Origin: a virus
DNA: 58,655 nucleotides
Reading direction: 5' to 3' (one strand)
IMG/VR virus record: IMGVR_UViG_3300037070_005559
Coordinates: 1 to 58,655 of that record
A model generated the notes under the pieces. That model was not told the origin of the DNA and made no database searches. It saw only the letters and a list, made by a program, of their open reading frames with translations. The position numbers were made by a program, and so were the translations under genes. Shown piece by piece: positions 779-58,553 of the stretch; position 1 is the stretch's first letter; the number at the start of each line of letters is the position of its first letter.

Positions 779-810
779 ACCTCACCATCTTCCCCCTGTT
801 ACACGTTGTA

Positions 811-845
811 AAGCAAAATCCGGCAGAGCGTGAGCAATGCCGGAT
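811..845 (-). terminator. Putative intrinsic terminator or attenuator between the zinc-ribbon gene and the 138-aa gene
   Basis: 8-bp stem atccggca (818-825) / tgccggat (838-845). On the minus strand it is followed by TTTTGCTTT (plus-strand A-run 811-817). Confidence 0.45.
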
Positions 846-886: not shown

Positions 887-1057
887 TCAGTCTTTCAGCA
901 TCAGCCTTGTTAGCTGGCCGCAGTCACGACAGTTGACGTATTTGCTTTGCCGATCCATTTCATATCGGTTGGTAGTGCCGCAAGTGCTGCAATTCCACCA
1001 GACCCTGGCTGGCCTTGCAACATGAGGCTGCGTAACAATGCGCGCTTTCTTGTTCAT
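887..1057 (-). CDS. Small zinc-ribbon protein (56 aa)
   Basis: ATG at 1057 overlaps the upstream stop (ATGA). Carries CSTCG...CRDCG four-Cys motif. The track ORF start at 1084 is an upstream extension. Confidence 0.55.
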   Translation of the reverse strand: MNKKARIVTQPHVARPARVWWNCSTCGTTNRYEMDRQSKYVNCRDCGQLTRLMLKD

Positions 1058-1236
1058 TTGAGCAAATCTGAAAGTTCTTCCCAATTGCCCTGATGGCTTG
1101 GGTTGGATTCGCAGGCATCAATGGACCACTGTATTTTACCGGCTAGCAACGAAGGGATTTGACGCATTCTAGCTTTGGCGCGCGCAATCAACTCCCGCCG
1201 ATCCTCCAACTTGGTTAGATCAAGTGTGTTTTTCAT
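1054..1236 (-). CDS. Hypothetical protein (60 aa)
   Basis: The first ATG, at 1236, lies exactly 28 nt downstream of TTGACA (1270-1265, minus strand). The track start at 1257 is TTG. Confidence 0.55.
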   Translation of the reverse strand: MKNTLDLTKLEDRRELIARAKARMRQIPSLLAGKIQWSIDACESNPSHQGNWEELSDLLK

Positions 1237-1270
1237 ACCCCCACTCTCCCATATCAAAACAGTTTGTCAA
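1237..1270 (-). promoter_or_regulatory. Promoter-like element for a leaderless transcript (leftward)
   Basis: Minus strand reads TTGACA-aactgttttgatatgg-GAGAGT-gggggt-ATG(1236). The -35 box lies inside the 16-bp inverted repeat 1257-1272. Confidence 0.5.
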
Positions 1271-1312
1271 ACCATTTCACCGCATTAGGTATTACTACCG
1301 ACAGATAATAGT

Positions 1313-1346
1313 TTGACAAACTGTTTAAGGGGTTTAGTGTGGGGCG
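1313..1346 (+). promoter_or_regulatory. Promoter-like element for a leaderless transcript (rightward, early operon)
   Basis: TTGACA-aactgtttaaggggtt-TAGTGT-ggggcg-ATG(1347). The -35 box lies inside the 16-bp inverted repeat 1311-1326. Confidence 0.5.
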
Positions 1347-1727
1347 ATGAAATTCAAAATCGTTGAGAAGAAAAACCGGCTTGCCGTTCATGGCATATTT
1401 GACAGCCGGGAACGCGCGGAAAAGAATCTGCGCGAAGTCAAACCCGGTGAATGTGCACGCGAGCTATTCATGGATAAGACGCTGAAGCCGGAAGATTTTG
1501 AAATCATTCCCATGAGCAAACCCAAAGTCAGTTGCCAATGTTCAGACCCGGGCTGCCCTGTCCACGCTGGCAAGTCCTCTTGCACCCATCGCGCGATTAC
1601 CGCGTTAGTCCGCGTGGATATGGAAGACATCACCGGGACGGCGTTCTGCCGCGCTTGCGCCGATGATGCTTTCGAGTCGGGACTGTTTAGAGAATCAATC
1701 AAAGCCAAAATTGCACAAGGATTATGA
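1347..1727 (+). CDS. Hypothetical Cys-rich protein (126 aa)
   Basis: First gene of the plus-strand operon. Cys/His cluster CQCSDPGCPVH...C...CRAC. Confidence 0.7.
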   Translation: MKFKIVEKKNRLAVHGIFDSRERAEKNLREVKPGECARELFMDKTLKPEDFEIIPMSKPKVSCQCSDPGCPVHAGKSSCTHRAITALVRVDMEDITGTAFCRACADDAFESGLFRESIKAKIAQGL

Positions 1728-2098
1728 AATTAGAAAACATTGGATCACTTATCACCATTGCCGAAACGAATACCTGCCTGGGGTATCTTTTGGACTTCGC
1801 TGGCCGCGGTGTATTTTCACCCGACGGAAAAGTTGAAATCACCAAAGAGCAGGCGGACACGCACAATCGACTATTGGCGGAGGCGGAAATTGCAGGACTT
1901 GACCGCTGCGAAATTGGACAGTGGGGAACGTTCTATTGGAGCCCACAAAAGGGAGTGACAACGTGGACAGGTGTCAAGGTGGCGAACTACACGCTTAATC
2001 AGTCTCAAACCGTTCTGACGTTCAGACGCGGGGAAAAGGTGTTTCGCGGACGACTGAAAAAAGATGCCGACTGTTTCAATTTCAAACGCATCAAATGA
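1724..2098 (+). CDS. Hypothetical protein (124 aa)
   Basis: ATGA overlap with the upstream stop. Ordinary amino-acid composition. Confidence 0.7.
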   Translation: MKLENIGSLITIAETNTCLGYLLDFAGRGVFSPDGKVEITKEQADTHNRLLAEAEIAGLDRCEIGQWGTFYWSPQKGVTTWTGVKVANYTLNQSQTVLTFRRGEKVFRGRLKKDADCFNFKRIK

Positions 2099-2370
2099 AA
2101 ACCGAAAAACTCTTTGGGCAACGAATCGCCTGTTATGATGACGGTAAATCCATTGACCGTTACACAGTCGTCTATCTGGATCAACCGGAGACACGGCCTG
2201 GCACCTTTGCGGCTGTCGGAATGAGCGGCTTACCCTTTCACCCGCAAGGCATTGGCCAGCATTGTACCGCAATGCCAGGCCGTCACCTGGGCAAACGGAT
2301 TAAATTTCAAGACCTACCGGAAGATTGCCGGCGGCTTGTAGAGCAAGACCTGAAACCAGAAACAAAATGA
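2095..2370 (+). CDS. Hypothetical protein (91 aa)
   Basis: ATGA overlap with the upstream stop. Contains a DRYTVVY...PFHPQGIGQH...HLGKRI pattern. Confidence 0.7.
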   Translation: MKTEKLFGQRIACYDDGKSIDRYTVVYLDQPETRPGTFAAVGMSGLPFHPQGIGQHCTAMPGRHLGKRIKFQDLPEDCRRLVEQDLKPETK

Positions 2371-3185
2371 AAACCACACTCCACACCTACAATTTCAACA
2401 CCGACAATCCGCAAGACCGGGAGCCCGTTCATCAGCTCTGCGCGCGGCTTAACGCCACGATAGGCCGCGGCAGCAAAATGCGCGCGATCAAATCCAATCA
2501 GGATTTCAACCCGGAGCCCGGAGAAATAACGCTCGAACCGGAGCACCTTTTCGAAAACCAATGGAATTCAAATGTTGGCCGCGTTTTCGACTGGTACGAG
2601 GAAGCAATCTGGGCCAATGGACGCGAACTCAAAAACATCAAGCGCGGGCACTACCTGGAAATAACGCCGCAAATGGCGGCGATCCGGGAGAACACGCTGA
2701 AATGCGGGTACACCGGCCAGCAATTCCCGATTTCCGAATTCCCGGAAGGCACGCCACGATTCAACACCACTCAGCAGGCGCTTGGATCTCCGTATCTCAA
2801 GGAAAGCGAATTGCACCTTTGCCGGCTGCTTCCAGTTTCTCGGGAGTGGCGGGACCGCCGCAATGAACTGACGCCAGCCGAACGCGACTACTTGCTTCCG
2901 CTTTATATCCAGGCGCAGACGAAGCCGGGTGTAGGAGCGCGAGCAAAGCAGATTGAGGGAGTCCACGAGGAATTCAAAAAGACTGTCGCAACCGCCACGA
3001 TCAATCGCGACGGCTTTCTCTGGCTGTTGAATCGCGGCATCAATACAGAGAATTGCATTTTTTACAGCCACACCGGGCGCTTTGGATTCGGCTGGCGCAA
3101 CGAATACCGCAGGGCGGCATATTCGGCGCTCTCGGATCTCCTGAAAGAGTTTCCGTTTCCCTATGACATAAAGGGGGCAGGATGA
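2367..3185 (+). CDS. Hypothetical protein (272 aa)
   Basis: ATG at 2367 forms an ATGA overlap with the stop of 2095..2370. The track ORF from 2325 is an upstream extension. Confidence 0.7.
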   Translation: MKTTLHTYNFNTDNPQDREPVHQLCARLNATIGRGSKMRAIKSNQDFNPEPGEITLEPEHLFENQWNSNVGRVFDWYEEAIWANGRELKNIKRGHYLEITPQMAAIRENTLKCGYTGQQFPISEFPEGTPRFNTTQQALGSPYLKESELHLCRLLPVSREWRDRRNELTPAERDYLLPLYIQAQTKPGVGARAKQIEGVHEEFKKTVATATINRDGFLWLLNRGINTENCIFYSHTGRFGFGWRNEYRRAAYSALSDLLKEFPFPYDIKGAG

Positions 3186-3511
3186 ACCCCTCACACAATC
3201 ACACCATGAAAACACAACACACACCGGGACCGTGGGCAACATCACGCGACGCTGTTCCAGCCAGCCACGTTCAAATTACGGTTTACGCCGAAAGCACAGG
3301 CAACCGAGTGGCGACCGTATTCGACCGCGAGGCCAATGCCAACCTCATCGCCGCTGGTCCGGATTTGCTTTCAGCTTTGGAAGAATGCCTTGCGTGGTTC
3401 GACTTGGACCCGCAGCGTAATCATCCAATCATGGCGCAAGACACTGACATTGGCTTCAGGATGATTCGACAGGCCAGAACCGCCGTTGACAAAGCCAAAG
3501 GCCAATCGTGA
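3182..3511 (+). CDS. Hypothetical small phage protein (109 aa)
   Basis: ATGA overlap. Carries the HTPGPW...ANANLIAAGPDLL pattern that is common in small phage proteins. Confidence 0.7.
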   Translation: MNPSHNHTMKTQHTPGPWATSRDAVPASHVQITVYAESTGNRVATVFDREANANLIAAGPDLLSALEECLAWFDLDPQRNHPIMAQDTDIGFRMIRQARTAVDKAKGQS

Positions 3512-3879
3512 AAACCAGAATTTGTGCGAAGAAAGAAACGCCAAAGCCACTCAGCTCCGAACAGATGAAAACAATTACTGACCTGAAATCTCTGGCAACC
3601 GAGGTTAGAAAACTCAAGCGCCTGCTCGACGATCCGCAGCCCGGCTTGTTCACCTGGGCGCAAATGTATGGTGACTCCATGCAAGCGATGAGCGACTTCT
3701 GGAATGAGGATCTACTGAAGGCGGGCAAGGGCGTTCTCGAAGCGGTCAAAAGTGGATACGTATGCGATAAGAAAACGATCAAATTCTACTGCGGCCATGT
3801 CTCGCCAGAGCAGTTTTCAGAACTCCATAAAGCTGTTTATGGAGCAAAAGCGATTGACCATTTTCCGCGCCAGGAATAA
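3508..3879 (+). CDS. Hypothetical protein (123 aa)
   Basis: GTG start in a GTGA overlap with the upstream stop. Confidence 0.65.
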   Translation: MKTRICAKKETPKPLSSEQMKTITDLKSLATEVRKLKRLLDDPQPGLFTWAQMYGDSMQAMSDFWNEDLLKAGKGVLEAVKSGYVCDKKTIKFYCGHVSPEQFSELHKAVYGAKAIDHFPRQE

Positions 3880-3885
3880 AACTAT

Positions 3886-3920
3886 TTGACAAACCATCTC
3901 CACCCTGAGATTGTCCACCC
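3886..3920 (+). promoter_or_regulatory. Internal promoter-like element for a leaderless transcript, upstream of the HTH gene
   Basis: TTGACA-aaccatctccaccctga-GATTGT-ccaccc-ATG(3921). Embedded in aTTTGACAAAC, a third copy of the operator-like motif. Confidence 0.45.
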
Positions 3921-4094
3921 ATGCCAGCATCCCCGCAACTTTCAAAAGCCGTAGCGCGCCGCCGTAAACGCGTTCAGTCGTTGCGTCAAACGCTGAACAG
4001 CCGCGGGCGCCCGATGTCGTTTTGCCAGATCGGGCAACGCCTGGGGATCTCTCCGCAACTGGTGGCAAATGATTTGAAGGAGTTGGGGAAATGA
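3921..4094 (+). CDS. Small helix-turn-helix DNA-binding protein (57 aa; below the ORF-track length cutoff)
   Basis: Translated by hand: MPASPQLSKAVARRRKRVQSLRQTLNSRGRPMSFCQIGQRLGISPQLVANDLKELGK. SFCQIGQRLGISPQLV is HTH-like. The stop overlaps the next ATG (ATGA at 4091). Confidence 0.6.
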   Translation: MPASPQLSKAVARRRKRVQSLRQTLNSRGRPMSFCQIGQRLGISPQLVANDLKELGK

Positions 4095-4285
4095 TAGCGA
4101 AATACAACGCCGCATTTTGTCCGAAGTGCAAAATTGTTTTCCACGAGACTCACAGTTCGCCTTGGCATTGGAGCAAGTCGGCTGCCCTGCACACTCGCGG
4201 CACCGGCCACAAATTGAAAAGGTTTAACACGGCTGCGGTGGATATGTTGAAGCTGGCTTACGACGGGACGCTTGTGGAATTATGA
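4091..4285 (+). CDS. Small zinc-finger-like protein (64 aa)
   Basis: ATGA overlap. CPKC...H..H motif. Confidence 0.6.
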   Translation: MIAKYNAAFCPKCKIVFHETHSSPWHWSKSAALHTRGTGHKLKRFNTAAVDMLKLAYDGTLVEL

Positions 4286-4608
4286 CCCCTTGGAAAGCCA
4301 TCATCGCCAAAGCCCGAACAGCCGACGGCAACTGGGTATTAGAAACTGGTTTCCCATTCAAAGTGGGGATGACGATCGAGATCGATCTAGCCAGCCGCAA
4401 AAACGACCAGTTTGTAAAGACCTCGACTCAAAAAACGTATTGGACGGAGATCGTGAACCTGATTGATCCACAAAACCCACATGGGCCGCCCATGTATTTT
4501 CCCACCGAAATGCTGGCGCTGCGTTGTAAATTCTGCGACGGCACGCTGGTGAAAGACGAAGCTGATATGCGGTGCGACACGTGTTTGGAGATAAATGTGA
4601 TGAGGTAA
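4282..4608 (+). CDS. Hypothetical protein with a C-terminal zinc ribbon (108 aa)
   Basis: ATGA overlap. CKFCDG...CDTC motif. Confidence 0.65.
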   Translation: MTPWKAIIAKARTADGNWVLETGFPFKVGMTIEIDLASRKNDQFVKTSTQKTYWTEIVNLIDPQNPHGPPMYFPTEMLALRCKFCDGTLVKDEADMRCDTCLEINVMR

Positions 4609-4612
4609 AGTT

Positions 4613-4879
4613 GTGAAGCGCAAAATCTACAAATACGTTCTTCAGATCGACGACAATCAGGCAATCGAAATGCCGGAAGGCGCGACCATACTCACCGCTC
4701 AAATGCAGCGAGGCCATCTCTGCCTGTGGGCAGTCGTTGACATCGATCCGGAATTGCCACAGAAGATGCGGCACATTGAAATAATCGGCACCGGAAATCT
4801 TTTTACGGAAGCGCCACGGCGGTACATAGCTACCGTCCAAGACGGCTCGCTCGTCTGGCATGTGTTCGAGCGGCAGTGA
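4613..4879 (+). CDS. Conserved small phage protein (88 aa)
   Basis: GTG start. The KIYKY...LWAVVD...GTG...HVFE pattern is one I recall from a widespread small phage protein family. Family identity not verified. Confidence 0.6.
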   Translation: MKRKIYKYVLQIDDNQAIEMPEGATILTAQMQRGHLCLWAVVDIDPELPQKMRHIEIIGTGNLFTEAPRRYIATVQDGSLVWHVFERQ

Positions 4880-4888
4880 TGTGATGCG

Positions 4889-5164
4889 ATGATAAAGATC
4901 GTAACAACCATTCGTCAGCGCCGAATGTCCAACGGCAAGCGGGCGGTCATTGTCGACATCCGGCCAAACGGTTATGACCAGGCGAGTGAGGCGCTTAAAG
5001 CCGAGGCATGGCCGTTCCTGAAGGTCCAACAGGAACTGGCTCGCCTGAAATCGTCGAGAGTTCAAAACTCTTTCTTTGGCGAGGCGCCAACCAACGAATT
5101 CGGAGCACAGGTCATCAAGAATTTAACCAACGACTTTCTAAAACCCAGAAGGAACAAACCATGA
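4889..5164 (+). CDS. Hypothetical protein (91 aa)
   Basis: The ORF ends in an ATGA overlap with the RecT start. Confidence 0.6.
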   Translation: MIKIVTTIRQRRMSNGKRAVIVDIRPNGYDQASEALKAEAWPFLKVQQELARLKSSRVQNSFFGEAPTNEFGAQVIKNLTNDFLKPRRNKP

Positions 5165-6357
5165 CACAAGTAACCCAACAGCTTCAACGCCGCGCCGAAA
5201 CCGCAGTCAGCCTTCGATCTCTCGTCGAGAGTCCGGCCTACAAGAGCCGCTTCAATGAAGTGCTACGCGATCGCGCGCCGCAATTCGTCGCCTCACTCGT
5301 TCAACTGGTAAACGCATCACCGCAGCTTCAGCGATGCGAGCCCAACACCATCATCGCCGCCGCCATCACAGCCGCTGCGCTGGATCTGCCGATTGAAAAG
5401 AACCTGGGCTTTGCCTACATCGTGCCCTACGGCGATCAGGCGCAGTTCCAGATTGGTTACCGTGGGCTGGTTCAACTGGCGATTCGCACATCGCAATACA
5501 AATTCCTGAACGTGACGCCCGTTTACGAAGGTGAGCTCGATCTTCATAATCCGCTCACGAGCGAAATCGTGCTGGATACCAAAAAGCGGAAGTCGGACAA
5601 GATCGTGGGCTACGCCGCGTATTTCCGACTGGTCAATGGATTCGAGCACGCAGAGTACTGGGACGTCCAAACGGTCGAAGACCATGCCCGACGCTACAGC
5701 CAGGCGTATAAGTCGGGCCGCGAAACCCCGTGGAAAACCGACTTCCCGAAAATGGCGATGAAGACCGTGCTGAAGTCCATGCTCTCGCATTGGGGGATTA
5801 TGTCAGTCGAGATGCAGGGGGCGATTATCAACGATGAGAGCGTGCGGGTTGACGGCCAGGACCCGATCTACCCCGACTCGTCTGATCCGAAGGTGCCGAT
5901 GTTCGACGAGCCGGCGGTACTTCCTGCTCCGGTCGACCCGCCATCACCGAAGCCCGCAGCCAAACCCAAAGCGGCAAAAGCTGCCGCACAACCTTCCACT
6001 CCGGCACCGACTCCGCCGGAGCCGTCCCCAGCAGCCGCCACGGCACCCTCAGACGAGCCGGAGCCGCAGGCGGCTGCTTCTCTGCCGCTAGAGCCTGAAA
6101 CAGCCCAGCCTCAGCCAGCAGCGCCCACGTCAGGCTCCTCCGCGCTCGTCCAGCAGTTGGCCGAAGCCATCTTGGCCGCCGAGGTCACCGAAGCCCAGGT
6201 TCTGTCATTCTGCGCGAAGAAAAAGCTGTTTCGACCAGATGGACAACCGGCCGCAGCCATCTCCGAATTGAAAGGCAGCACGATCGAACTACTGACCAAA
6301 AACCTGAATAACCCGCTGAGTCCGTCGCTGAAGGGCATACGGGAAGAGGCAATCTAA
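5161..6357 (+). CDS. recT: RecT-family single-strand annealing protein with a Pro/Ala-rich linker and an extra C-terminal domain (398 aa)
   Basis: ATG at 5161 (ATGA overlap). RecT-like core: NTIIAAAITAAALDLPIEKNLGFAYIVPYG...IGYRGLVQLAIRTSQY. About 90 aa of P/A/E low-complexity sequence, then a ~75-aa helical tail. Confidence 0.85.
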   Translation: MTQVTQQLQRRAETAVSLRSLVESPAYKSRFNEVLRDRAPQFVASLVQLVNASPQLQRCEPNTIIAAAITAAALDLPIEKNLGFAYIVPYGDQAQFQIGYRGLVQLAIRTSQYKFLNVTPVYEGELDLHNPLTSEIVLDTKKRKSDKIVGYAAYFRLVNGFEHAEYWDVQTVEDHARRYSQAYKSGRETPWKTDFPKMAMKTVLKSMLSHWGIMSVEMQGAIINDESVRVDGQDPIYPDSSDPKVPMFDEPAVLPAPVDPPSPKPAAKPKAAKAAAQPSTPAPTPPEPSPAAATAPSDEPEPQAAASLPLEPETAQPQPAAPTSGSSALVQQLAEAILAAEVTEAQVLSFCAKKKLFRPDGQPAAAISELKGSTIELLTKNLNNPLSPSLKGIREEAI

Positions 6358-6363
6358 CGCAGA

Positions 6364-6427
6364 AGTCAGCGAAGTGGCGGTCGCTGACTCAAGTAAAACC
6401 CGTGGCATCCGCCCGCCACTTTCGCTG
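6364..6427 (+). promoter_or_regulatory. Two mutually exclusive RNA hairpins (candidate attenuator or translational switch)
   Basis: Hairpin A: agtcagcga (6364-6372) pairs with tcgctgact (6381-6389). Hairpin B: cagcgaagtggcgg (6367-6380) pairs with ccgccactttcgctg (6413-6427). The two share the same 5' arm. Confidence 0.4.
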
Positions 6428-6439
6428 GACTGATTGGTT

Positions 6440-6736
6440 ATGCCTGAACGAACTCAAAAACAAATCGAAGCCGAAATCGTGGCGCTCGAAGGCTGCAAAG
6501 CCTACGTGCCGCATTACACGAAATTCGGAGATGACAACCACCACGGAATAGACCTCCAAATCGAATACCTCCGTGGCGATATAGACACCACCGCTGGCGA
6601 GTGGGACGACTACACCGACGACGAACAAAGCACCATCCTCGAAGCTCAATACTGGAAAGAGGGCGAGGAAAAAGAATCGCCATCCGTTGGCTGGGACGAC
6701 TACAAGCCCGGTGCTAAGAAACGCGCAAAGGCATAA
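6440..6736 (+). CDS. Acidic hypothetical protein (98 aa)
   Basis: ATG at 6440 (the track start at 6434 is TTG). D/E-rich with a basic tail KKRAKA. Confidence 0.6.
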   Translation: MPERTQKQIEAEIVALEGCKAYVPHYTKFGDDNHHGIDLQIEYLRGDIDTTAGEWDDYTDDEQSTILEAQYWKEGEEKESPSVGWDDYKPGAKKRAKA

Positions 6737-6754
6737 CGATTGAGATCACCGACC

Positions 6755-7201
6755 ATGCCGCGAATCAAAACCATGCTCGACCGGATGAACGCTGAAAATC
6801 CAGACAAGGTGCTCGATGAACTGGAGGCTAAGCATGGTTCGCGTGCATCGACTTGTTCGGGGGCCTTACAACAGGCAGCTATCATAGCGGCGTGGCACGC
6901 ACTCAATTCCGTCCTGGCAGTGCGTGACGGGATCAGTGACGGGCTGATTAAGAACATCATCGCCCTTCTCGAAGCTGCAAAAGAAGGGCGCGCGTATGAG
7001 GCTTCCGAGGTTGAACTGCGCCTTGCGTTAGAGGAATCGGTCAAGCTCCAGAGCTTTTACGCGAAACACCTCAATATTTGGGACGGCGGAAAACGCATCG
7101 GATTTAAGGATGCGGCGGCGTGGGTAGGCCGACTCCGTGAAACGAAAACTCTGCCCTCGAACGACAAGCTGAGGCACGGCGCGGACAACCCAGACGTATG
7201 A
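6755..7201 (+). CDS. Hypothetical protein (148 aa)
   Basis: First ATG at 6755 (the track start at 6740 is TTG). Helical composition. Confidence 0.65.
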   Translation: MPRIKTMLDRMNAENPDKVLDELEAKHGSRASTCSGALQQAAIIAAWHALNSVLAVRDGISDGLIKNIIALLEAAKEGRAYEASEVELRLALEESVKLQSFYAKHLNIWDGGKRIGFKDAAAWVGRLRETKTLPSNDKLRHGADNPDV

Positions 7202-7503
7202 ATACTCCAAAGACTATCGAGCAGAGCAAACCCGCCGTTGCCTCCAGCGACTGGTTAGGCGTCTTTCGTATCGGCCAAAGAGTCTGGACGACTGTAACCG
7301 TGGCCGGGAAAACGCAGCGCATGGCGATGGGAGTGATAACTGGAATGCATAGCGGATACTGCGACGTGGACGTGATGGGTCTGCATGGCGGTGCGCCGTG
7401 GATACAACAGCACACCAACGCCAGCCTCGAACCTGTAATCTGCCGCGCCTGCGAATGCAAAGTGGACGCTGACGGATGCGGCTGCAACCCACATGACGCC
7501 TAA
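7198..7503 (+). CDS. Hypothetical protein with a Cys-rich C-terminus (101 aa)
   Basis: ATGA overlap. CRACECKVDADGCGC. Confidence 0.65.
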   Translation: MNTPKTIEQSKPAVASSDWLGVFRIGQRVWTTVTVAGKTQRMAMGVITGMHSGYCDVDVMGLHGGAPWIQQHTNASLEPVICRACECKVDADGCGCNPHDA

Positions 7504-7537
7504 CGCTCCGCATGAGCTACCGGAGCGCGAATAATCT

Positions 7538-7630
7538 ATGACTTTGAACACGCCAACGACTGACGAACTGGAGAGGCCCGCTCCGGTTAGCTCCATGCGG
7601 TTGTTGTGCCGTCCGGCCCGAATCGTATGA
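7538..7630 (+). CDS. Candidate 30-aa upstream ORF / leader peptide
   Basis: Hand translation: MTLNTPTTDELERPAPVSSMRLLCRPARIV. Its TGA overlaps the ATG at 7627 (ATGA). It spans the 3' arm of a long imperfect inverted repeat. Confidence 0.3.
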   Translation: MTLNTPTTDELERPAPVSSMRLLCRPARIV

Positions 7631-8010
7631 CCACAAAAAAAGTCACTCGACACTACTGCGACCACTGCCGCAAGGGGAGCTTCACGAAGCCTAGCATGGT
7701 CAAACATGAGTCACGATGCTGCCGCAACCCAAACCGTGCGTGCGGCGTGTGCGAGAAAGACAACACCAATGTCGAAGCCAATGCCAAGCTGCTAATGGCC
7801 GAAGGACTGGACACCCTAAAATCGAAAACCGACTGCCCGGCCTGCATACTCGCCGCTCACATGATGGCAAACAAACTTTCAGGATTCACAACGCCGGGCC
7901 GGTGGGCGGATGAGGACACGGAGTTCTACTACTACGACTACAAAGAGGCGATGAAGCAATGGTTCAGTGAGAAAAACAATCTGGCGGTGAACCTCGGACA
8001 CGACTACTGA
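7627..8010 (+). CDS. Zinc-finger protein (127 aa)
   Basis: ATG at 7627. HYCDHC...H..CC...CGVC and a CPAC motif. Confidence 0.65.
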   Translation: MTTKKVTRHYCDHCRKGSFTKPSMVKHESRCCRNPNRACGVCEKDNTNVEANAKLLMAEGLDTLKSKTDCPACILAAHMMANKLSGFTTPGRWADEDTEFYYYDYKEAMKQWFSEKNNLAVNLGHDY

Positions 8011-8014
8011 AAAT

Positions 8015-8290
8015 ATGAAGCAAAAACTCGATGAAGTCCGCACGCTGGCCATCAAACTGTTTGAGGCAGGCGAAAGGGAAAAGCGCAAACACGCAAAATG
8101 TATCTGGGGGCAGTCAAAGGAATGGCGCGACCTGCCATCTGAATCCGTGGCTGTGTGGGATGCCGTGGCCATCTGCGCCTACGACCAACTAGCGGCGTCC
8201 TCCCGGCGGCACAACGCCGGAACTCAGCGACCCGGCTCACCGGACGTGTCGCTTGCAACTGAATCGCGAAAGCCGGGTTCGCTGAAGTGA
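8015..8290 (+). CDS. Hypothetical protein (91 aa)
   Basis: ORF in the operon frame context. No motif recognised. Confidence 0.55.
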   Translation: MKQKLDEVRTLAIKLFEAGEREKRKHAKCIWGQSKEWRDLPSESVAVWDAVAICAYDQLAASSRRHNAGTQRPGSPDVSLATESRKPGSLK

Positions 8291-8301
8291 CTGGTTAGGC
8301 C

Positions 8302-8613
8302 ATGAAATTCTACGAGAAAATGATGATGACACCTCCGACCTCGGAGACTGTCCCGAAGCTCGGAATGCAGATAGCCGAAGTGCCGTGCTACCACTGCGGT
8401 CGAATAACCAGAGTGCCGGTCAAACCTGAATGGGTGGACTGGGAGCGAGTGGCCGAGAAATACCGTCAAGGCTACGAGAAGATGATGCAACGCTTCGGGC
8501 AAATCGTGACAGACGTTAACGTGATGCACGCCGGGCCAAATCCAGTGCTCGAATACATCGAAAACGAATGGAAGGTCTTGCTGGATGACCTCCGAAAAGA
8601 CCTAGAGGCGTAA
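8302..8613 (+). CDS. Hypothetical protein (103 aa)
   Basis: ATG at 8302. Ordinary composition. Confidence 0.65.
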   Translation: MKFYEKMMMTPPTSETVPKLGMQIAEVPCYHCGRITRVPVKPEWVDWERVAEKYRQGYEKMMQRFGQIVTDVNVMHAGPNPVLEYIENEWKVLLDDLRKDLEA

Positions 8614-8662
8614 TGGCCTAACAGTGTATTATGCAACACAAAACCGGAGTCAAGGAGCGCAA

Positions 8663-8941
8663 ATGAAATGGACAAAAGCACATAGCCGCAATGCCGTTGC
8701 AGCCAAAGCGCATAAGCGAATGGCTGAGCCTGTGTTCGATGAGGCGCCGGCGCGTAAGTTCAGGTTGCCGCGGGCACGCGCCCGATTCCGCATCACGATC
8801 CGTGACGAACAGATCGGTGATAGCCTCACACTGTCTTTGACTCCGATGCCGTGGCGTGGGAGGTTCCTGTCATCTGACCGGCAGGAACTCAGCACCTACA
8901 AAATCTGTAGGGCAATGCGCGAAATCCTCAACCACGAATGA
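8663..8941 (+). CDS. Hypothetical basic protein (92 aa)
   Basis: ATG at 8663 is preceded by aaggag about 6 nt upstream. The track start at 8624 is GTG. Confidence 0.6.
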   Translation: MKWTKAHSRNAVAAKAHKRMAEPVFDEAPARKFRLPRARARFRITIRDEQIGDSLTLSLTPMPWRGRFLSSDRQELSTYKICRAMREILNHE

Positions 8942-9024
8942 ACTGGAAAACCTTCGCCCTCATCTACGCCTGCATCCTGCTCATCGGCGTCGCCATGTTG
9001 TGCAAACGCAAGAAAACATCGTAG
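8938..9024 (+). CDS. Candidate 28-aa single-pass membrane peptide
   Basis: Hand translation: MNWKTFALIYACILLIGVAMLCKRKKTS. ATGA overlap with the upstream stop. Confidence 0.45.
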   Translation: MNWKTFALIYACILLIGVAMLCKRKKTS

Positions 9025-9038
9025 AGCACGAGGAGGGC

Positions 9039-9878
9039 GTGTTCCTTAACGTCCCCATGTCGGAATACCGCGCGGCATCAGGCGTCTCCCAAGGCAATCT
9101 GAAGGAGATTGCGATCTCCCCCGCGCATTATCGTGCAGCTGTTACCACGCCAGAAGAGGAGCCGACGCAGGCGCAGAAGATTGGCCAGGTCATCCACTCG
9201 GTATTACTCGATCACACGTTTAGCCAGTTTGTTATCCGCCCCGACACCTATCCCGCGACCGTCAAAGGCAAGAAAGGAATGCCGGACATCACTGTCAATA
9301 AAAAGTGGAGCGGCACCGCAAATTATTGCAAGGAATGGATGGAGCAACAGGAGGTGACGGTTATTACAACCACGGATTGGACTGACATTCGCGGCATGAT
9401 CGCCTCCATCCAAAGCCATCCAAAAGCCTCACGCATCCTCAATGGCGAAGGCAATAACGAGGTTTCGATCTGGAAACGCCATGAGCCGACTGGACTGCTA
9501 CTCAAAGGACGTGCCGACCGTGTGACGACCGACAACAATGACTTCATTTGTATTCCGGATCTAAAAAGCTGTCAGCGCGGGGGTGCGGCTCAAGATGAAT
9601 TCAGTCGGTCTATCTACAACTACGGTTACGAAAGGCAAGCGGCGTACTACCTGGATTTGTTCGGCGCCACGTTCTTTATCTTCATTGCGGTTGAGAAGGA
9701 GGCGCCTTATGCAGTTGCGTGCTACAACCTGTCTCCGGACAGCATTGCCCTGGGGCGACGTCAGAACGAGCGGGATCTGGCCATTGTGAATCGGTGTACT
9801 GAAACCGGGGTCTGGCCGGCGTACCCTGAGGGACTTTACACAATCGGAGTTCCTGATTGGGTTTTGAAAAGGGAGTAA
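9039..9878 (+). CDS. PD-(D/E)XK exonuclease (RecE / exonuclease VIII-like; partner of RecT)
   Basis: GRADRV...IPDLKSC (D...DxK) and ERQAAYY...FIFIAVEKEAPYAV motifs. The start is uncertain: GTG 9000, GTG 9039 or ATG 9057. Confidence 0.75.
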   Translation: MFLNVPMSEYRAASGVSQGNLKEIAISPAHYRAAVTTPEEEPTQAQKIGQVIHSVLLDHTFSQFVIRPDTYPATVKGKKGMPDITVNKKWSGTANYCKEWMEQQEVTVITTTDWTDIRGMIASIQSHPKASRILNGEGNNEVSIWKRHEPTGLLLKGRADRVTTDNNDFICIPDLKSCQRGGAAQDEFSRSIYNYGYERQAAYYLDLFGATFFIFIAVEKEAPYAVACYNLSPDSIALGRRQNERDLAIVNRCTETGVWPAYPEGLYTIGVPDWVLKRE

Positions 9879-9926
9879 CCCCATGCCCACGTCACCAAAC
9901 CCCAAACGCGGAGTGAAGGAGAGAGT

Positions 9927-10340
9927 ATGAGTGATAAGAAGCTGGTTGATTTTGACATCGTTGTCCCGGCGATGAAACAGGGCGGAGGTGATGGCTACAC
10001 AAAGACGATTAAGGTGTTGGCTTACACTAATGCCAGCGGTGAAGAAATACTCACGCCTGAGGCAATAGATAAAATTGAACAGTATCAGGTTCACCTTCAA
10101 CTGAAACAGCTTATTGCTGCGGTGCGCGAACTGAACTGGCTACCACCATTACCCGACGCCTTGGATATTGACCGAACAGAGGCAGCAGCGAACGTGGCTG
10201 CTCCTTTGGAGGCGTCGGGATCATTTATCAAGAAGCTCGACAAAGCCATAGCGTTTCACCAAAACAACCAAAACGACCCGCATGGAGTTGGAAGCGCCGT
10301 GATCGCTGCACTAATAGAAGTCAGGAACGCTGCACTATGA
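9927..10340 (+). CDS. Hypothetical protein (137 aa)
   Basis: ATG at 9927 is preceded by gaaggagagag. Confidence 0.7.
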   Translation: MSDKKLVDFDIVVPAMKQGGGDGYTKTIKVLAYTNASGEEILTPEAIDKIEQYQVHLQLKQLIAAVRELNWLPPLPDALDIDRTEAAANVAAPLEASGSFIKKLDKAIAFHQNNQNDPHGVGSAVIAALIEVRNAAL

Positions 10341-10380
10341 CCACCCCCAAAGGCTGGCGCAGGCTCAGGAAAGGCGAAGT

Positions 10381-10916: not shown

Positions 10917-10925
10917 AAAACATGT

Positions 10926-12041: not shown

Positions 12042-12062
12042 GTCGTCAGTGTATCAGGTTGG

Positions 12063-17953: not shown

Positions 17954-18003
17954 CTTACCCTTTGCCTTTATCCTCGCAACTCTTTCGGATTCTATTTTTC
18001 GGG

Positions 18004-18032
18004 AGTATGCACATTACAAAGGTGGTTGTCAA
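18004..18032 (-). promoter_or_regulatory. Sigma-70-like promoter downstream of the accessory island
   Basis: Minus strand reads TTGACA (18032-18027), a 17-nt spacer, then CATACT (18009-18004). Lies about 45 nt upstream of the ATG at 17953. Confidence 0.4.
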
Positions 18033-18055
18033 TAACCCGGCAGCCCATGGTCGGC

Positions 18056-18973
18056 TCACTTTTGGAGTTGCTTGGTTTCGGAAACGGCGGCCAGCACCAT
18101 GCTTGTTATCGAAGGCGGAAGTGCGCGTTTCTTTTCTTGGCTCTCAAGATAAATCGGCAATTTGATTTTCAAATACACATTGCGCATCCATTGGCGATAC
18201 TCCGGCAGAGCGGCTTCTGGATACGCCCACGGGTGCTGAGGGTTGGATCTGGCCTGAGGAAAATACTCGGGGTAATTGTGTTCGTATCGAATGCGCGCTC
18301 CATGCACCTCATCAAATCCGTTATCTTCCCAATGCTTCCCCCAGTGAATTCTAACGCTACCGTCAGGGACGGTATGTTCGTCAACGGGCACCCCGCCTTG
18401 AATGAGCGATACTATGATGTCCGCCATTTCTTTGAAGATGCTGAAATAACCAACAGGGACCTTATGATAATTAAGCGACACTCTGTCGTGAAATTTTTTC
18501 CAACACTCGGGGATTTTGTTCGTTGGATCGTAGCCAACCTGAACATAAATAAACGCCGTCAAAGACGACTTGGTTAGCAACCTGAAATTCTTTAATGCAG
18601 TTTCGCGCGGAGGTTTTACCTCAAAGGCATAATATTCTAGGATCGCAGTGCAAACGACTGCCGGATATGCAAAATGGGTTGAACCGTCTACCTCAAGCCG
18701 CATGAATAGCGGGCCATCATATTCGGCGTCGTGGAGAATATTGGATATGGCCCTGCCGCGCGGTTTTGATTGTTCGGACTCCCAGTCATTTGTTAGGTCT
18801 TGGATTACAGAATGGACGACTCCGCACATTGCTGCCAATCCACGGCCCGTCAGATAAGCCGTGCCGTCGCTCATCACTCCCATTTGAACGCCATCAATCT
18901 CAACCTGACGAGCGATGGTCAGATTAAGCATTGTCTGTGCTTTTGGGGCGGCGGGTAAATCCTTTGGTTTCAT
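18056..18973 (-). CDS. P63C-domain-like phage protein (305 aa)
   Basis: ATG at 18973 with aagga upstream (the track GTG start is at 19018). The YPAVVCTAILEYYAF...HWGKHW...YPEYFPQ...WAYPE...YL pattern is recalled as P63C-like. Not verified. Confidence 0.45.
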   Translation of the reverse strand: MKPKDLPAAPKAQTMLNLTIARQVEIDGVQMGVMSDGTAYLTGRGLAAMCGVVHSVIQDLTNDWESEQSKPRGRAISNILHDAEYDGPLFMRLEVDGSTHFAYPAVVCTAILEYYAFEVKPPRETALKNFRLLTKSSLTAFIYVQVGYDPTNKIPECWKKFHDRVSLNYHKVPVGYFSIFKEMADIIVSLIQGGVPVDEHTVPDGSVRIHWGKHWEDNGFDEVHGARIRYEHNYPEYFPQARSNPQHPWAYPEAALPEYRQWMRNVYLKIKLPIYLESQEKKRALPPSITSMVLAAVSETKQLQK

Positions 18974-19025
18974 TTGTAATATCCTATCCTTCAACGTAGT
19001 TACCCGGCGGGTAGCCACGCGCCAG

Positions 19026-19169
19026 TCACTTCGTCCGCTTAGTGCGCTTCGGCGTGAGTGGTTCCGGCTTCACCCTGATGGCCCGGCGCATCGCTGCGTC
19101 AAAGTCCATCGCCAGCACCAAGCCTCGTTCCTGGGGCCGCTTGGTTTTACCTTTGGGGGCCATTGCCAT
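19026..19169 (-). CDS. Small basic protein (47 aa; below the track cutoff)
   Basis: Hand translation: MAMAPKGKTKRPQERGLVLAMDFDAAMRRAIRVKPEPLTPKRTKRTK. Starts 2 nt after the stop of the toxin-like gene. Confidence 0.45.
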   Translation of the reverse strand: MAMAPKGKTKRPQERGLVLAMDFDAAMRRAIRVKPEPLTPKRTKRTK

Positions 19170-19171
19170 AA

Positions 19172-19450
19172 TTATTCAGCGTCCAAGGAATAATTCACAA
19201 CCGAAAGCAATATCACGTGTGATGCATTGAACGTGTAGAATATTCCGAGTTCTCGGCCTTTCGGAACGTCGCGCGAGAATACACACCAGACGGATGTGCC
19301 CGGCACATTGCGGCCACATTTGGGATTCCTCGCCAATACCCAGATAGCCCCCTCTATCAATTCATCTGCCCGCCGAGCGCTGGGTTCAATTTTTTTCAGC
19401 TCGGCTTCAAATTTATGCTCGCAAACTACAGTCCTTAAGGGCGCTTGCAT
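19172..19450 (-). CDS. RelE/ParE-like toxin candidate (92 aa)
   Basis: Small protein directly downstream of the Panacea-domain gene and overlapping it. The C-terminal IFYTFNASHVILLSV pattern is typical of RelE/ParE toxins. Confidence 0.5.
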   Translation of the reverse strand: MQAPLRTVVCEHKFEAELKKIEPSARRADELIEGAIWVLARNPKCGRNVPGTSVWCVFSRDVPKGRELGIFYTFNASHVILLSVVNYSLDAE

Positions 19451-20036
19451 CTGCTTTTAGGGCAGCAGCAGCAATGGATTCCAATGTCGCCCCGTGCTTT
19501 AACTCTTCTTGTCTCAACTGTCGCGTGGACACAAGAGCTACCGGATACGGAATGGTTTCTTCATTGCTGGCCAATTGCCATCCGATGAAGTCGTGAGACT
19601 CTTCGCTAATCTCCGATGCTGTTTTGCCTCGGTGAGCCTCAACAACCTTGTCCATCATATCGATCTCATGTGCCGAAAACAAATCTAAATTCGGTTTCCG
19701 AAGTCCGACGGTGCGATTCTGGGTGAACCCAAAATATTCCGCTCGATCAATTCTTATGTCGCCGCTCCTTATCATCTGCTTGCTCACGGGGAGCCATCTT
19801 CGCGGCGCTGGTCCATTGCCAAGTCTAAAATAACTTTGGCCGGTGATGGCTTGTCCGAAATTGAGATATGCTAAAAAGTCGCAATAAAACAAAAGCTTGT
19901 TTTGCTTTGTCGCGCCAAATGTTTCATCCCCGCGACACTTCTCGGCGAGATAGAGCACAGCCTCACGCAGTTTTGCATCCTGCACTTCACTCTTTAGCGG
20001 CTGATGTATCTTTCGTAGCGCCATAACTCGTTCCAC
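19413..20036 (-). CDS. Panacea (DUF4065 / SocA-like) domain antitoxin
   Basis: KQNKLLFYCDFLAYLNFGQAITGQSYFRLGNGPAP matches the KLLYyaD...G..iTG..Y....GPv signature. GTG at 20036 or ATG at 20024. Confidence 0.7.
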   Translation of the reverse strand: MERVMALRKIHQPLKSEVQDAKLREAVLYLAEKCRGDETFGATKQNKLLFYCDFLAYLNFGQAITGQSYFRLGNGPAPRRWLPVSKQMIRSGDIRIDRAEYFGFTQNRTVGLRKPNLDLFSAHEIDMMDKVVEAHRGKTASEISEESHDFIGWQLASNEETIPYPVALVSTRQLRQEELKHGATLESIAAAALKADASALKDCSLRA

Positions 20037-20055
20037 GGCACGCTACCACAGCAAC

Positions 20056-20070
20056 ATTGTTGCCGCAACA
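20056..20070. promoter_or_regulatory. 15-bp perfect palindrome upstream of the antitoxin gene (candidate operator)
   Basis: TTGTTGC-c-GCAACAA, read directly, 20-34 nt upstream of the GTG at 20036. Confidence 0.45.
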
Positions 20071-20141
20071 AGGAGTTATTGGGGTTTTCCACCACTTTTC
20101 CGGCCCCTTTTAATCAGTCAATCATAGAAGTTTGCCTTGAT

Positions 20142-21152
20142 TCAGGCAGACTGCTTATACGTGAGCACCTTTCCCTCGATCTTGCCCAACCCGGCAATCA
20201 TTCGCTCGCCGTCCGTGACGTGGCGATTATTCCAGCGGAACGTGAACTCATTGCAGTAGCGGAACAGGTGCTCTTTGCTGACGTGATGGAACGAACCCGC
20301 CAGCCCGCGCTTCAATAACGAGAAGAAACTTTCCGCCGTGTTCACATGGCTAACGGTTCCATCCGCGTTGTGCTTCGCGTATTGCTTCTTGCGATGGACA
20401 ACGGAACCGTGACTCTTGAACGCCCGGCGAATCGGACGATACAGGTGTGACTCGTCAGTGTTGAATGTGGCCTGACGGGATACATTGTCGAAAACGAAGT
20501 CCCGGAGATTCTTCGGGGTGACAGTCGCCAGCACCTTAGTGCGAACCTGGCCCCCGCGTTCCACGAGCGCGAGAATGGGCGACTTTGAGCTACCCTTGCG
20601 ATATCCCTTTTCCTTCAAGTTGCCCTTTGAGTCGCGGTTCGGGTTGGGGCCGTAATAGGTTTCGTCTGCCTCTACCGTGCCCGTCAGTGGCTTGTTGAAC
20701 TGTGGGTCACTCATGGCGTGCCGAATCTTGTGCATCATCATCCAAGCCGTGCGGTAGCTGCCGAAGCCTAACGCCCGTTGAATCTGCTTTGCGCTCACGC
20801 CCTTCTTGGCGTTGCAAATGAGATACCACGCGACGAGCCACTTCCAGAGCGGGATTTTGCTGTCGGTGAAAATGGTTCCAACCATCACAGAGAATTGCTT
20901 GTCGCACGCTCCACACTCATAGAGACCGTGGCGAATGCTCTTGGCCGTGTTGCCTTCGATCTTCCAGACCTTTGATTGCTCCGCATTCTTGCAGTGGGGG
21001 CAAACCGGGCCATTGGGCCAGCGGATAGCCTCAAGGTATTCACGGCCCTTGCGGTCGGGGTCGGTCAATTCCTCGCTGCTGTCCGGGGCGAAGCGGGACA
21101 TGATCTGAGTAAGGCTTAACTCCTTTGGGGTTGGCAACAAGTCGCTTTTCAT
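20142..21152 (-). CDS. IS1595-family (ISXO2-like) DDE transposase
   Basis: N-terminal zinc ribbon RWPNGPVCPHC...YECGACDKQFSVMVGTIF. Also SYRTAWMMMHKIRHAM, VEADETYYG, HVNTAESFFSLLKRG..GSFHHVSKEHLFRYCNEFTFRWNNR. ATG at 21152. Confidence 0.85.
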   Translation of the reverse strand: MKSDLLPTPKELSLTQIMSRFAPDSSEELTDPDRKGREYLEAIRWPNGPVCPHCKNAEQSKVWKIEGNTAKSIRHGLYECGACDKQFSVMVGTIFTDSKIPLWKWLVAWYLICNAKKGVSAKQIQRALGFGSYRTAWMMMHKIRHAMSDPQFNKPLTGTVEADETYYGPNPNRDSKGNLKEKGYRKGSSKSPILALVERGGQVRTKVLATVTPKNLRDFVFDNVSRQATFNTDESHLYRPIRRAFKSHGSVVHRKKQYAKHNADGTVSHVNTAESFFSLLKRGLAGSFHHVSKEHLFRYCNEFTFRWNNRHVTDGERMIAGLGKIEGKVLTYKQSA

Positions 21153-21186
21153 GGGCACAGACTACCATGGGGCTAACCTTTGTCAA
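21153..21186 (-). promoter_or_regulatory. Promoter-like element for a leaderless transposase transcript
   Basis: Minus strand reads TTGACA-aaggttagccccatgg-TAGTCT-gtgccc-ATG(21152). The -35 box overlaps the HNH stop codon. Confidence 0.45.
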
Positions 21187-21587
21187 GTGCATACTCCCGC
21201 TATTTTTGATCTTACGTGACCACGCAGCCTTTTGAGCACGCTATCAGTAAAAATGATTCCGTGTTTTTGAGCGATGTGGATTTTGTGATGGCATTTACGG
21301 CAAAGGGTGATGCAGTGTCTTGCCTGAGTTTCCCAAACGTTCTTTGGGTATTCCTTGTGATGAACGTCGTTTGATAAATTGAACGCATCACATAGAAAGC
21401 ATTTCGCACCATCGCGAGCCAGAACCTCCGCCCGCACGGTCTGCCACTGCTCAGACTTCAGGTATCCGAACCTATAAGCGTGTTTACCTGCTATGCTCAC
21501 ACCAACGTCAACATCGGCTTCCGACAGCACTCGCAAGCGCATCTCGACGACCACGCGTGATGAAACGCCCGACATCTGCGGCACCAA
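21183..21587 (-). CDS. HNH-type endonuclease-like protein (134 aa)
   Basis: WQTVRAEVLARDGAKCFLCD...VHHKEY...LCRKCHHKIH. Confidence 0.65.
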   Translation of the reverse strand: MVPQMSGVSSRVVVEMRLRVLSEADVDVGVSIAGKHAYRFGYLKSEQWQTVRAEVLARDGAKCFLCDAFNLSNDVHHKEYPKNVWETQARHCITLCRKCHHKIHIAQKHGIIFTDSVLKRLRGHVRSKIAGVCT

Positions 21588-23637: not shown

Positions 23638-23673
23638 TTCCCAAGTTAATAACTAACACCCGTCAGGTGTCAA
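23638..23673 (-). promoter_or_regulatory. Promoter-like element after the portal gene
   Basis: Minus strand reads TTGACA (23673-23668, overlapping the portal stop)-cctgacgggtgttagt-TATTAA-cttgggaa-ATG(23637). Confidence 0.4.
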
Positions 23674-31536: not shown

Positions 31537-31537
31537 G

Positions 31538-33248: not shown

Positions 33249-33260
33249 TGCAACTCCAAT

Positions 33261-37869: not shown

Positions 37870-37904
37870 GGCTCTCTCTACACGAGATGACAACTGACTG
37901 TCAA
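37870..37904 (-). promoter_or_regulatory. Internal promoter-like element directly after the 1473-aa gene
   Basis: Minus strand reads TTGACA (37904-37899)-N29-ATG(37869), with TAGAGA as the -10 candidate. Confidence 0.4.
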
Positions 37905-49243: not shown

Positions 49244-49278
49244 TTGAACCTCGGGCGACAGTATGTCAATCTGCAAAT
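49244..49278 (+). promoter_or_regulatory. Weak promoter-like element with the leaderless geometry, upstream of terL
   Basis: TTGAAC-ctcgggcgacagtatgt-CAATCT-gcaaat-GTG(49279). Confidence 0.3.
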
Positions 49279-53227: not shown

Positions 53228-53262
53228 TTGCGTTCCTCACATTTATTTGTCAGGCTCGTGGT
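53228..53262 (+). promoter_or_regulatory. Weak promoter-like element with the leaderless geometry (replication operon)
   Basis: TTGCGT-tcctcacatttatttgt-CAGGCT-cgtggt-GTG(53263). Confidence 0.3.
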
Positions 53263-58259: not shown

Positions 58260-58276
58260 TTTCTGTTCTCGCCTTC

Positions 58277-58411: not shown

Positions 58412-58553
58412 AAAGCCCTAACCCCGTTAGTAATCAAAACTCCTCTGGAGAGTTTTGATACTAGGGAGGGGGTTGTTTTGGTTGTAAGAGTTTGAAAGTT
58501 TTCTGTCAAGACAAAAATGAGGTGAAAACGGGAACTATTTTGGAAGGCGAAAA

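Follow-up and report, generated by a model that had tools for sequence, protein, structure and literature searches.

The window analysed here is a stretch of viral DNA of 58,655 nucleotides (nt) (IMG/VR record IMGVR_UViG_3300037070_005559, positions 1 to 58,655), and its subject is a set of eight promoter-like sites in which a TTGACA-type −35 box stands at a short, recurring distance from a start codon. From this geometry, TTGACA-N28-30-start codon, an earlier note had proposed leaderless transcripts at several operon starts. Two of the sites point apart within a 110-bp gap (1237-1346) between a leftward gene for a 60-amino-acid (aa) protein and a rightward gene for a 126-aa protein, the latter opening a rightward block of 24 genes (1347-11537) that includes RecT and a DUF3799 protein. 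Site 1, on the minus strand, reads TTGACA-N16-GAGAGT-N6-ATG with a spacer ending in TGG (−35 at 1270-1265, −10 at 1248-1243, ATG at 1236) and precedes the 60-aa gene (1236..1054); site 2, on the plus strand, reads TTGACA-N16-TAGTGT-N6-ATG before the 126-aa gene (−35 at 1313-1318, −10 at 1335-1340, ATG at 1347). Site 3 (3885..3920, plus strand) is TTGACA-N17-GATTGT-N6-ATG with a spacer ending in TGA (−35 at 3886-3891, −10 at 3909-3914, ATG at 3921). Site 4 (21153..21199, minus strand) belongs to the transposase gene of an insertion sequence (IS) and is TTGACA-N16-TAGTCT-N6-ATG with a spacer ending in TGG (−35 at 21186-21181, −10 at 21164-21159, ATG at 21152). At site 5 (37870..37904, minus strand) the order is TTGACA-N29-ATG (TTGACA at 37904-37899, ATG at 37869 of an 83-aa gene), and the weak site 6 (23638..23673, minus strand) reads TTGACA-N16-TATTAA-N8-ATG before an 88-aa gene starting at 23637. 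The last two sites, both on the plus strand, are site 7 (49244..49278), which reads TTGAAC-N17-CAATCT-N6-GTG at the start of a 626-aa gene (−35 at 49244-49249, −10 at 49267-49272, GTG at 49279), and the weak site 8 (53228..53262), which reads TTGCGT-N17-CAGGCT-N6-GTG before a 74-aa gene (GTG at 53263); the spacers of both end in TGT.

When the hexamers, spacers and start codons of all eight sites were re-read from the sequence, they agreed with the earlier note, including A at position 2 and T at position 6 of the −10 hexamer (A2 and T6) after an N16-17 spacer at sites 1-4, 7 and 8. The TTGACA hexamer is exact at sites 1-6, and all six of these have an ATG start, with GTG at sites 7 and 8; the base at −1 is a pyrimidine in four of the six (T at site 1, C at sites 3-5). 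A feature that had gone unnoticed is a TGn trinucleotide directly before the −10 hexamer at sites 1, 3, 4, 7 and 8 (it is missing at sites 2, 5 and 6), which strengthens the promoter reading. TGn is the extended −10 motif and makes up for weak −35 or −10 hexamers. The start codons agree with independent JGI and Logan gene calls, three of them backed by one caller alone: 3921 is a JGI call only, 21152 is a Logan call with a shorter JGI version, and 53263 is a Logan call where JGI picks TTG 53206 instead. Two further candidates turned up on the minus strand: TTTACA-N17-GATGGT-N5-ATG (779..812, ATG at 778) before a 138-aa gene, from a relaxed −35 search, and TGA-TACACT-N6-ATG (12042..12056, ATG at 12041), an extended −10 without a properly spaced −35.

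The TTGACA word itself is not enriched in the window (29 observed against 34.8±5.7 expected), and 8 of the 29 copies lie in the non-coding 6% of the genome (P=2.5e-4); this and the following P values are optimistic, the patterns having been fixed after inspection of the data, though the effect sizes are large all the same. Its spacing to the start codon was compared with dinucleotide shuffles, and an excess was found. The loose form TTGACA-N28-30-ATG occurs 6 times against 1.70±1.31, a count reached by 3 of 500 shuffles, and the full geometry TTGACA-N16-17-NANNNT-N6-ATG occurs 4 times against 0.068, which none of 500 shuffles reached. With the real sequence as control, the full geometry is found at 4 of the 86 annotated starts and at 2 of 3517 other ATG/GTG triplets (Fisher P=4e-6). 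With the −35 left out of account, TGn-NANNNT-N6-(A/G)TG is still found at 6 of 86 starts, and at 10 of the 3517 non-start triplets (odds ratio 26, P=1e-6). Allowing N5-8 gained a single start and left six of the seven matches at exactly N6, so the distance is sharply fixed at 6 nt. A −10 hexamer at −12 to −7 followed by 6 nt is the spacing expected for transcription starting (+1) at the A of ATG, and a TANNNT-type −10 signal about 12 bp before the start, used elsewhere as a criterion for leaderless genes (PMC3160421), is above background here. The geometry is real and non-random.

The divergent region and its palindromes

A repeat search of the 110-bp gap returned a 20-bp inverted repeat with arms at 1257-1276 and 1307-1326 (span 1257..1326; 19 of 20 positions complementary). 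The arms mirror the −35 regions of the two divergent sites, and each holds an 11-bp palindrome, GTTTG(A/T)CAAAC, with TTGACA inside it. The word TTTGACAAAC is present in three copies, at 1262-1271, 1312-1321 and 3885-3894, overlapping the −35 elements of sites 1, 2 and 3, all of which lie inside the shared palindrome (G/A)TTTGACAAAC. This palindrome is probably an operator too, and the simplest reading would be a promoter/operator module used three times, with a dimeric regulator competing with RNA polymerase for the −35. The sole other −10-like hexamer in the gap is GATAAT at 1304-1309, with neither a −35 nor a TGn.

The 57-aa protein that starts at site 3 (3921-4094) has a clear helix-turn-helix segment, with Pfam matches below the cut-offs (LexA_DNA_bind at 5.5e-4, HTH_11, and Sigma70_r4 at E=0.005). 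It is the nearest helix-turn-helix protein to sites 1 and 2, where a lambda-type divergent pair of repressor and Cro proteins could not be recognised: neither the 60-aa nor the 126-aa product showed a helix-turn-helix, a family match or a full-length homologue. For the 60-aa and 57-aa proteins zero homologues were found in the collections searched, and searches with the 126-aa protein in viral contigs, metagenomes and a set of 5.8 billion proteins returned homologues of its C-terminal domain only. That half (1512-1727, plus strand) is a small Cys-rich domain (CQCSDPGCP...) that stands alone as 69-85-aa proteins in other viral and metagenomic contigs; the N-terminal 55 residues occur in this phage alone. 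The short homologues begin at the equivalent of ATG 1512, which we have provisionally rejected as the start of the gene. Codons 1-55 carry the strongest coding signal in their frame (0.23 per codon against a genome mean of 0.13), which supports ATG 1347. A neighbouring 272-aa protein gave no homologue in viral contigs, and in a related phage found through the 138-aa gene (L097) the early region is non-syntenic and has no matching sites.

Conservation in an insertion sequence family and in related phages

The element that carries site 4 is an IS1595-family unit of 3,200 bp (18000..21199, minus strand) bounded by 20-bp inverted repeats with two mismatches (18000-18019 and 21180-21199) and by an 8-bp target duplication, CTATTTTT (17992-17999 and 21200-21207). 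Its transposase is of the IS1595/ISXO2 type (DDE_Tnp_IS1595, PF12762, 3.8e-33) with an N-terminal zinc ribbon (PF12760, 2.7e-12). The putative transposase promoter is held by the left end (minus strand, within 21153..21199), whose left inverted repeat (IRL) CGGGAGTATGCACTTGACAA includes the −35. One metagenome-assembled genome (MAG) contains nine copies of a related IS, each beginning exactly at GGGATTATCCACTTGACAA and each with unrelated flanks; the −35 is thereby placed within the IRL. We aligned 19 left ends from different, mostly verrucomicrobial genomes whose transposases are 44-61% identical to that of the window. No variation occurs in TTGACA, in A2 and T6 of the −10 hexamer or in the ATG; conservation is 90% or more for the G of TGn and for a C at −1, and the 12-nt core of the spacer varies freely. 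TGn is found in most IS copies, and ATG is the start codon in all of them. The IS loci total about 104 kb, and the strict motif was counted in them 21 times against 0.47 expected, nearly always with N6. Read from the alignment, this would be the textbook footprint of a promoter with its +1 at the A of the start codon. The 20-odd closest relatives of the transposase (44-61% identity) are almost all from Verrucomicrobiota MAGs, and from this phyletic distribution of IS homologues we infer that the host phylum is probably Verrucomicrobiota.

The IS is inserted in the long leftward gene array of the phage and carries defence and toxin-antitoxin-like cargo: an antitoxin-like protein with a Panacea domain, a 92-aa ParE-like protein (weak match), a 47-aa open reading frame (ORF) and the abortive-infection protein BstA at full length (PADLOC E=2.4e-117). 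Several Verrucomicrobiota elements of the same family (loci L007-L041) are 1.8-2.2 kb long and by their length carry passenger genes too. An outward promoter-like TTGACA-N17-CATACT (18004-18032, minus strand) runs through the right inverted repeat toward a 69-aa Cys-rich ORF (17953-17744) and a 549-aa gene, and could restore transcription of these downstream phage genes after insertion.

Related viral contigs of 42-59 kb, whose 626-aa protein is 65-68% identical to that of the window, allowed sites 5 and 7 to be followed. The 83-aa protein of site 5 has a CxxC motif and then a helix-turn-helix-like segment, and its TTGACA is part of a dyad, TTGACA-N6-TGTCA. Its orthologues in four related phages (L090-L093) are preceded by cTTGACA-N17/18-NANNNT-N8-ATG with diverged spacers; their genomic position differs, yet the promoter-like motif is kept and the protein N-termini align at the ATG. 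The four loci add up to 72 kb and contain 6 strict motifs where 0.37 would be expected; all six open an ORF of at least 55 aa, four of them the site 5 orthologues. The TTGACA of site 6 overlaps the stop codon of a 797-aa gene; the gene that starts at this site had no orthologue in the loci fetched, and taken individually the site is weak. Both site 5 and site 6 belong to a long array of genes on one strand, and they follow the gene before them at 38 and 32 nt.

Site 7 lies within a 40-bp divergent gap. Three of four related phages keep −35, TGA and −10 next to the start of the 626-aa gene (TTGCGA-N17-(TGA)CATAAT-N8-ATG, TTGACT-N18-(TGA)CATAAT-N7-ATG and TTGAAC-N17-(TGA)TAGGGT-N8-ATG), and the N-termini align (MPR/VPR). 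The fourth, L090, has GGAGG-N8-GTG instead, so that the same gene appears leadered in one genome and promoter-abutted in others. The 'terL' label of this gene found no confirmation: the 626-aa protein had no match in Pfam, PHROG, NCBIfam or PDB sequences, and a Walker-A-like GPASSWKS and an acidic MCDASYGGGD motif were recognised by eye only. On the opposite strand of the gap, TTGACA at 49269-49264 stands N25 from ATG 49238 of a 288-aa gene and N31 from GTG 49232, two codons inside that gene. This GTG is one of the two matches to the full geometry outside annotated starts, and the 288-aa gene may in fact begin there. Within the gap the two candidate promoters overlap, the −35 of one with the −10 of the other. 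The gap is flanked by a perfect inverted repeat of 10 bp, AGGCGTGGCA / TGCCACGCCT (49205-49214 and 49280-49289); one arm starts at the second base of the GTG of the 626-aa gene and the other is about 24-33 nt inside the 288-aa gene. Site 8 is weak when taken individually.

Proposed mechanism and alternatives

The earlier note had also held that none of these starts has a Shine-Dalgarno (SD) sequence, in contrast to the internal genes. This contrast disappeared on calculation. Site 1 has GGGAGAG (ΔG −10.9), and pairing with the anti-SD averages −4.6 kcal/mol at the eight starts, the same as the −4.9 at the other 78 genes. A pairing of −6 kcal/mol is reached by 36% of all genes and by 17% of random positions, and in so SD-poor a genome the absence of an SD is uninformative; some Verrucomicrobia are known to be SD-scarce (PMC10783764). 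The placement at operon starts was borne out in part: it is sound for sites 1, 2 and 7 and perhaps for 3 and 8, it fails for site 4, a putative promoter belonging to an inserted IS, and it is doubtful for sites 5 and 6. A general split between leaderless first genes and coupled downstream genes did not survive, as other first genes have leaders, SDs or distant promoters. Among the eight genes at four divergent junctions, those starting at 1236, 1347, 49279 and 53263 show the geometry (the last two with a weak −35), 49238 is ambiguous, and 53184, 54973 and 55430 are without it; genes 8663, 9039 and 9927 have good SDs after gaps of 48-97 nt, and a conventional TTGGCA-N17-AACAAT lies 135 nt upstream of 55430. 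The leaderless interpretation as a whole keeps the non-random geometry, the fit of the N6 spacing and the conservation at sites 4, 5 and 7 on its side, and loses the SD contrast and the general split.

The geometry, its enrichment and the conservation at these three sites are observed; promoter activity, the exact transcription start, leaderless translation and operator function are what we infer from them. Our preferred reading, to which we give a probability of about 0.6, is that these are host-type, often extended −10 promoters whose +1 would fall on, or within 1-2 nt of, the start codon and which would produce leaderless mRNAs, with putative operators over the −35 at the regulator genes. 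TTGACA would be the −35 of host housekeeping (sigma-70-type) promoters, followed by a 16-17-bp spacer, mostly ending in TGn, and by a weak NANNNT that ends 6 nt before the start codon. RNA polymerase would start on the A of ATG or within 1-2 nt of it, giving an mRNA with neither a 5' untranslated region (UTR) nor an SD, whose 5'-terminal AUG would be recognised directly by ribosomes. The design would serve the divergent control region 1237-1346, three small putative DNA-binding proteins, the IS transposase and probably the 626-aa gene. A dimeric regulator bound to the TTTGACAAAC palindrome at sites 1-3, or to the TTGACA-N6-TGTCA dyad at site 5, would block the −35, which would make these promoters repressible or autoregulated. 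Transcripts reading through from upstream would presumably be translated poorly for want of a ribosome-binding site, tying expression to the gene's own promoter, and such dependence would be useful for a transposase and for regulators.

Several observations pull the other way. The −10 hexamers of sites 1-4 match TATAAT at just three of six positions, and a −10 hexamer with T6 is missing from sites 5 and 6. A generic scan for the sigma-70 consensus leaves the sites unreported; this we do not take as counter-evidence, because A2/T6 and TGn are the functionally critical positions. The GGGAGAG of site 1, 9 nt upstream of the ATG, overlaps the −10; a leaderless mRNA would have no use for it, and its presence hints that the transcript there has a leader. 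Sites 7 and 8 start with GTG, which in E. coli works poorly as the start of a leaderless mRNA. In the orthologues of sites 5 and 7, 7-8 nt separate the −10 from the ATG, and in the related phage L092 the orthologue of the gene starting at 778 has a terminator and then TTGACA-N17-CATGTT-N11-ATG, a distance of 11 nt; these longer distances point to mRNAs with a very short leader and not to strictly leaderless ones. Over their first 40 nt the putative mRNAs show no reduction in folding compared with other genes (Mann-Whitney P=0.57). Sites 1-3 are without homologues, and their start codons and promoters are without comparative support, while the host assignment draws solely on the distribution of IS homologues at identities of at most 61%.

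Some of these points would suit a different explanation, in which the element is mainly a binding site for a regulator, transcripts start elsewhere and the mRNAs are leadered and SD-independent. The mirrored 20-bp module and the third TTTGACAAAC copy exceed what polymerase needs for a −35, TTGAC-N-GTCAA dyads are found again around the TTGACA of the site 5 orthologues, the −10 hexamers are weak, site 1 has its SD-like GGGAGAG, and about half of the genes are without an SD and must still be translated. We nevertheless consider this unlikely. It leaves unexplained both the exact N6 of NANNNT, with TGn, at 6 of 86 starts and the invariance of A2/T6 and ATG next to a variable spacer in the IS family, and no better promoter candidate is visible in the 110-bp divergent gap. 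Operator and −35 functions are, moreover, compatible, their overlap being the normal build of a repressible promoter.

Less probable still is that an alternative or phage-directed sigma factor reads these promoters, in which case the transcripts would remain leaderless. The −10s are unusual (GAGAGT, TAGTGT, GATTGT and TAGTCT, mostly ending in GT) and unlike the (T/C/G)ATATT typical of chromosomal IS copies, sites 1-4 all read TTGACAAA, and the 57-aa protein has its weak Sigma70_r4 match, which at E=0.005 is below the cut-off. Yet the proteins scanned showed no sigma factor, TTGACA with 16-17 bp is the canonical housekeeping architecture, and the −35, TGn and A2/T6 also occur in chromosomal IS copies, which must be read by the polymerase of the host. 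That TTGACA and ATG stand together by chance, an effect inflated by the post hoc choice of pattern, seems very improbable for the set as a whole. In its favour are the lack of overall over-representation of TTGACA, the 3 of 500 shuffles that match the loose form, the individual weakness of sites 6 and 8, and a count of the strict motif in 25 unrelated AAA_25 (helicase-like) phage loci that is not significant (6 against 3.1). The full-motif count that no shuffle reached, the Fisher P values of 4e-6 and 1e-6 against real non-start ATG/GTG, and the conservation of the geometry in independent genomes speak against it, and largely refute it for sites 1-4 and the IS family; it may still account for sites 6 and 8 individually.

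Genome, setting and known systems

The window carries an exact terminal direct repeat of 102 bp (1-102 and 58554-58655), and the contig of about 58.6 kb was assembled independently in JGI 3300037071, JGI 3300037119 and Logan SRR11673795 with differing break points. The repeat and the differently permuted assemblies indicate that the genome is complete at 58,553 bp and is circular or circularly permuted. An INPHARED search gave no resembling phage, the sole match being 90 bp in RecT. Family matches are absent for most proteins; those with matches include RecT, the DUF3799 protein, an AAA_25 ATPase, HNH nucleases, a Cpn10 homologue, a DnaJ-domain protein and the products of a sugar-modification cluster. 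This cluster of sugar or nucleotide-sugar modification genes encodes a C-methyltransferase, an NAD-dependent epimerase/RmlD-like protein, radical SAM, DUF5672 and DUF1643 proteins. The Cpn10 (GroES-like) gene accompanies it (together 26899-35820 and 37111-37431, minus strand), and the DnaJ-domain protein is encoded elsewhere (53184-52600). Across the joined ends, 58260-58553 and 1-361 make up about 650 bp of mostly non-coding DNA, with one 49-aa ORF (19-168). Neither of the two intergenic minus-strand TTGACA words in it (58293-58288 and 58509-58504) has a gene starting at promoter distance; the region could serve as an origin or a packaging site, or give rise to a small RNA.

On a wider scale, it may be that Verrucomicrobiota, their phages and their IS routinely use start-codon-abutting promoters, with leaderless mRNAs, for regulators and transposases, and that read-through transcripts of these genes stay silent for want of a ribosome-binding site, translation being confined to transcripts from the gene's own promoter. 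We put this forward tentatively and regard it as rather doubtful. If true, an unstudied phylum would join the groups that rely on leaderless mRNAs, and the design would have a functional reason in mobile elements. There is almost no molecular genetics of Verrucomicrobiota, and our literature search returned no reports of leaderless mRNAs or transcription starts for the phylum; if confirmed, these would, as far as that search goes, be the first promoter and 5'-end architectures for a Verrucomicrobiota phage and IS family. In practical terms, the sites offer a candidate promoter consensus, TTGACA-N13/14-TGn-NANNNT, and compact, probably repressible promoter/operator modules, and they suggest that SD-based calling of start codons is unreliable in these genomes.

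An IS transposase promoter whose −35 lies in the IRL travels with the element and can be occluded by binding of the transposase. The position of the −35 inside the IRL at site 4 agrees with this general IS biology; a limited literature search gave no report of an IS1595-family transposase promoter that is conserved and abuts the start codon. Among phages, the cI transcript of lambda made from P_RM is the classic leaderless case. In the telomere phage PY54, 5' rapid amplification of cDNA ends (5' RACE) has put the 5' end of each divergent mRNA at its start codon, the AUG of cI or of cro, and lambda cI is cited there as leaderless (PMC4488713). The region 1237-1346 is likewise a short divergent phage control region with palindromic, here putative, operators at its promoters. 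It differs from PY54 in being predicted from the sequence, in its flanking 60-aa and 126-aa genes, which are without homologues or a recognisable repressor fold, and in the phylum of the host; no integrase or lysogeny module was identified in this phage.

In Cluster O mycobacteriophages (Corndog and relatives), the SigA-like promoters PL1 and PR2 were predicted computationally, with a further such promoter inside the structural operon and conserved palindromes in the genome (PMC4351075). Their host is an actinobacterium with abundant leaderless mRNAs, where here it is probably a member of the Verrucomicrobiota. Computational surveys accept a TANNNT some 12 bp before the start codon as the signature of leaderless, 'TA-led' genes (Zheng et al. 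2011, PMC3160421), and in Deinococcus-Thermus a −10 region adjoining the ORF is a dominant mode (PMC12340547). As in TA-led genes, a −10-like hexamer at a fixed short distance would imply a missing 5' UTR. Such genes make up more than 20% of the total in Actinobacteria and Deinococcus-Thermus, as against some 6-9 of 86 here, and unlike the TA-led genomes this phage combines a strong −35 and TGn with the use of SD-led and leadered genes. The concept is already known from lambda cI, PY54 cI/cro, mycobacteriophages and Deinococcus; what is new is the setting, namely an uncultured phage, an IS family and their lineage.

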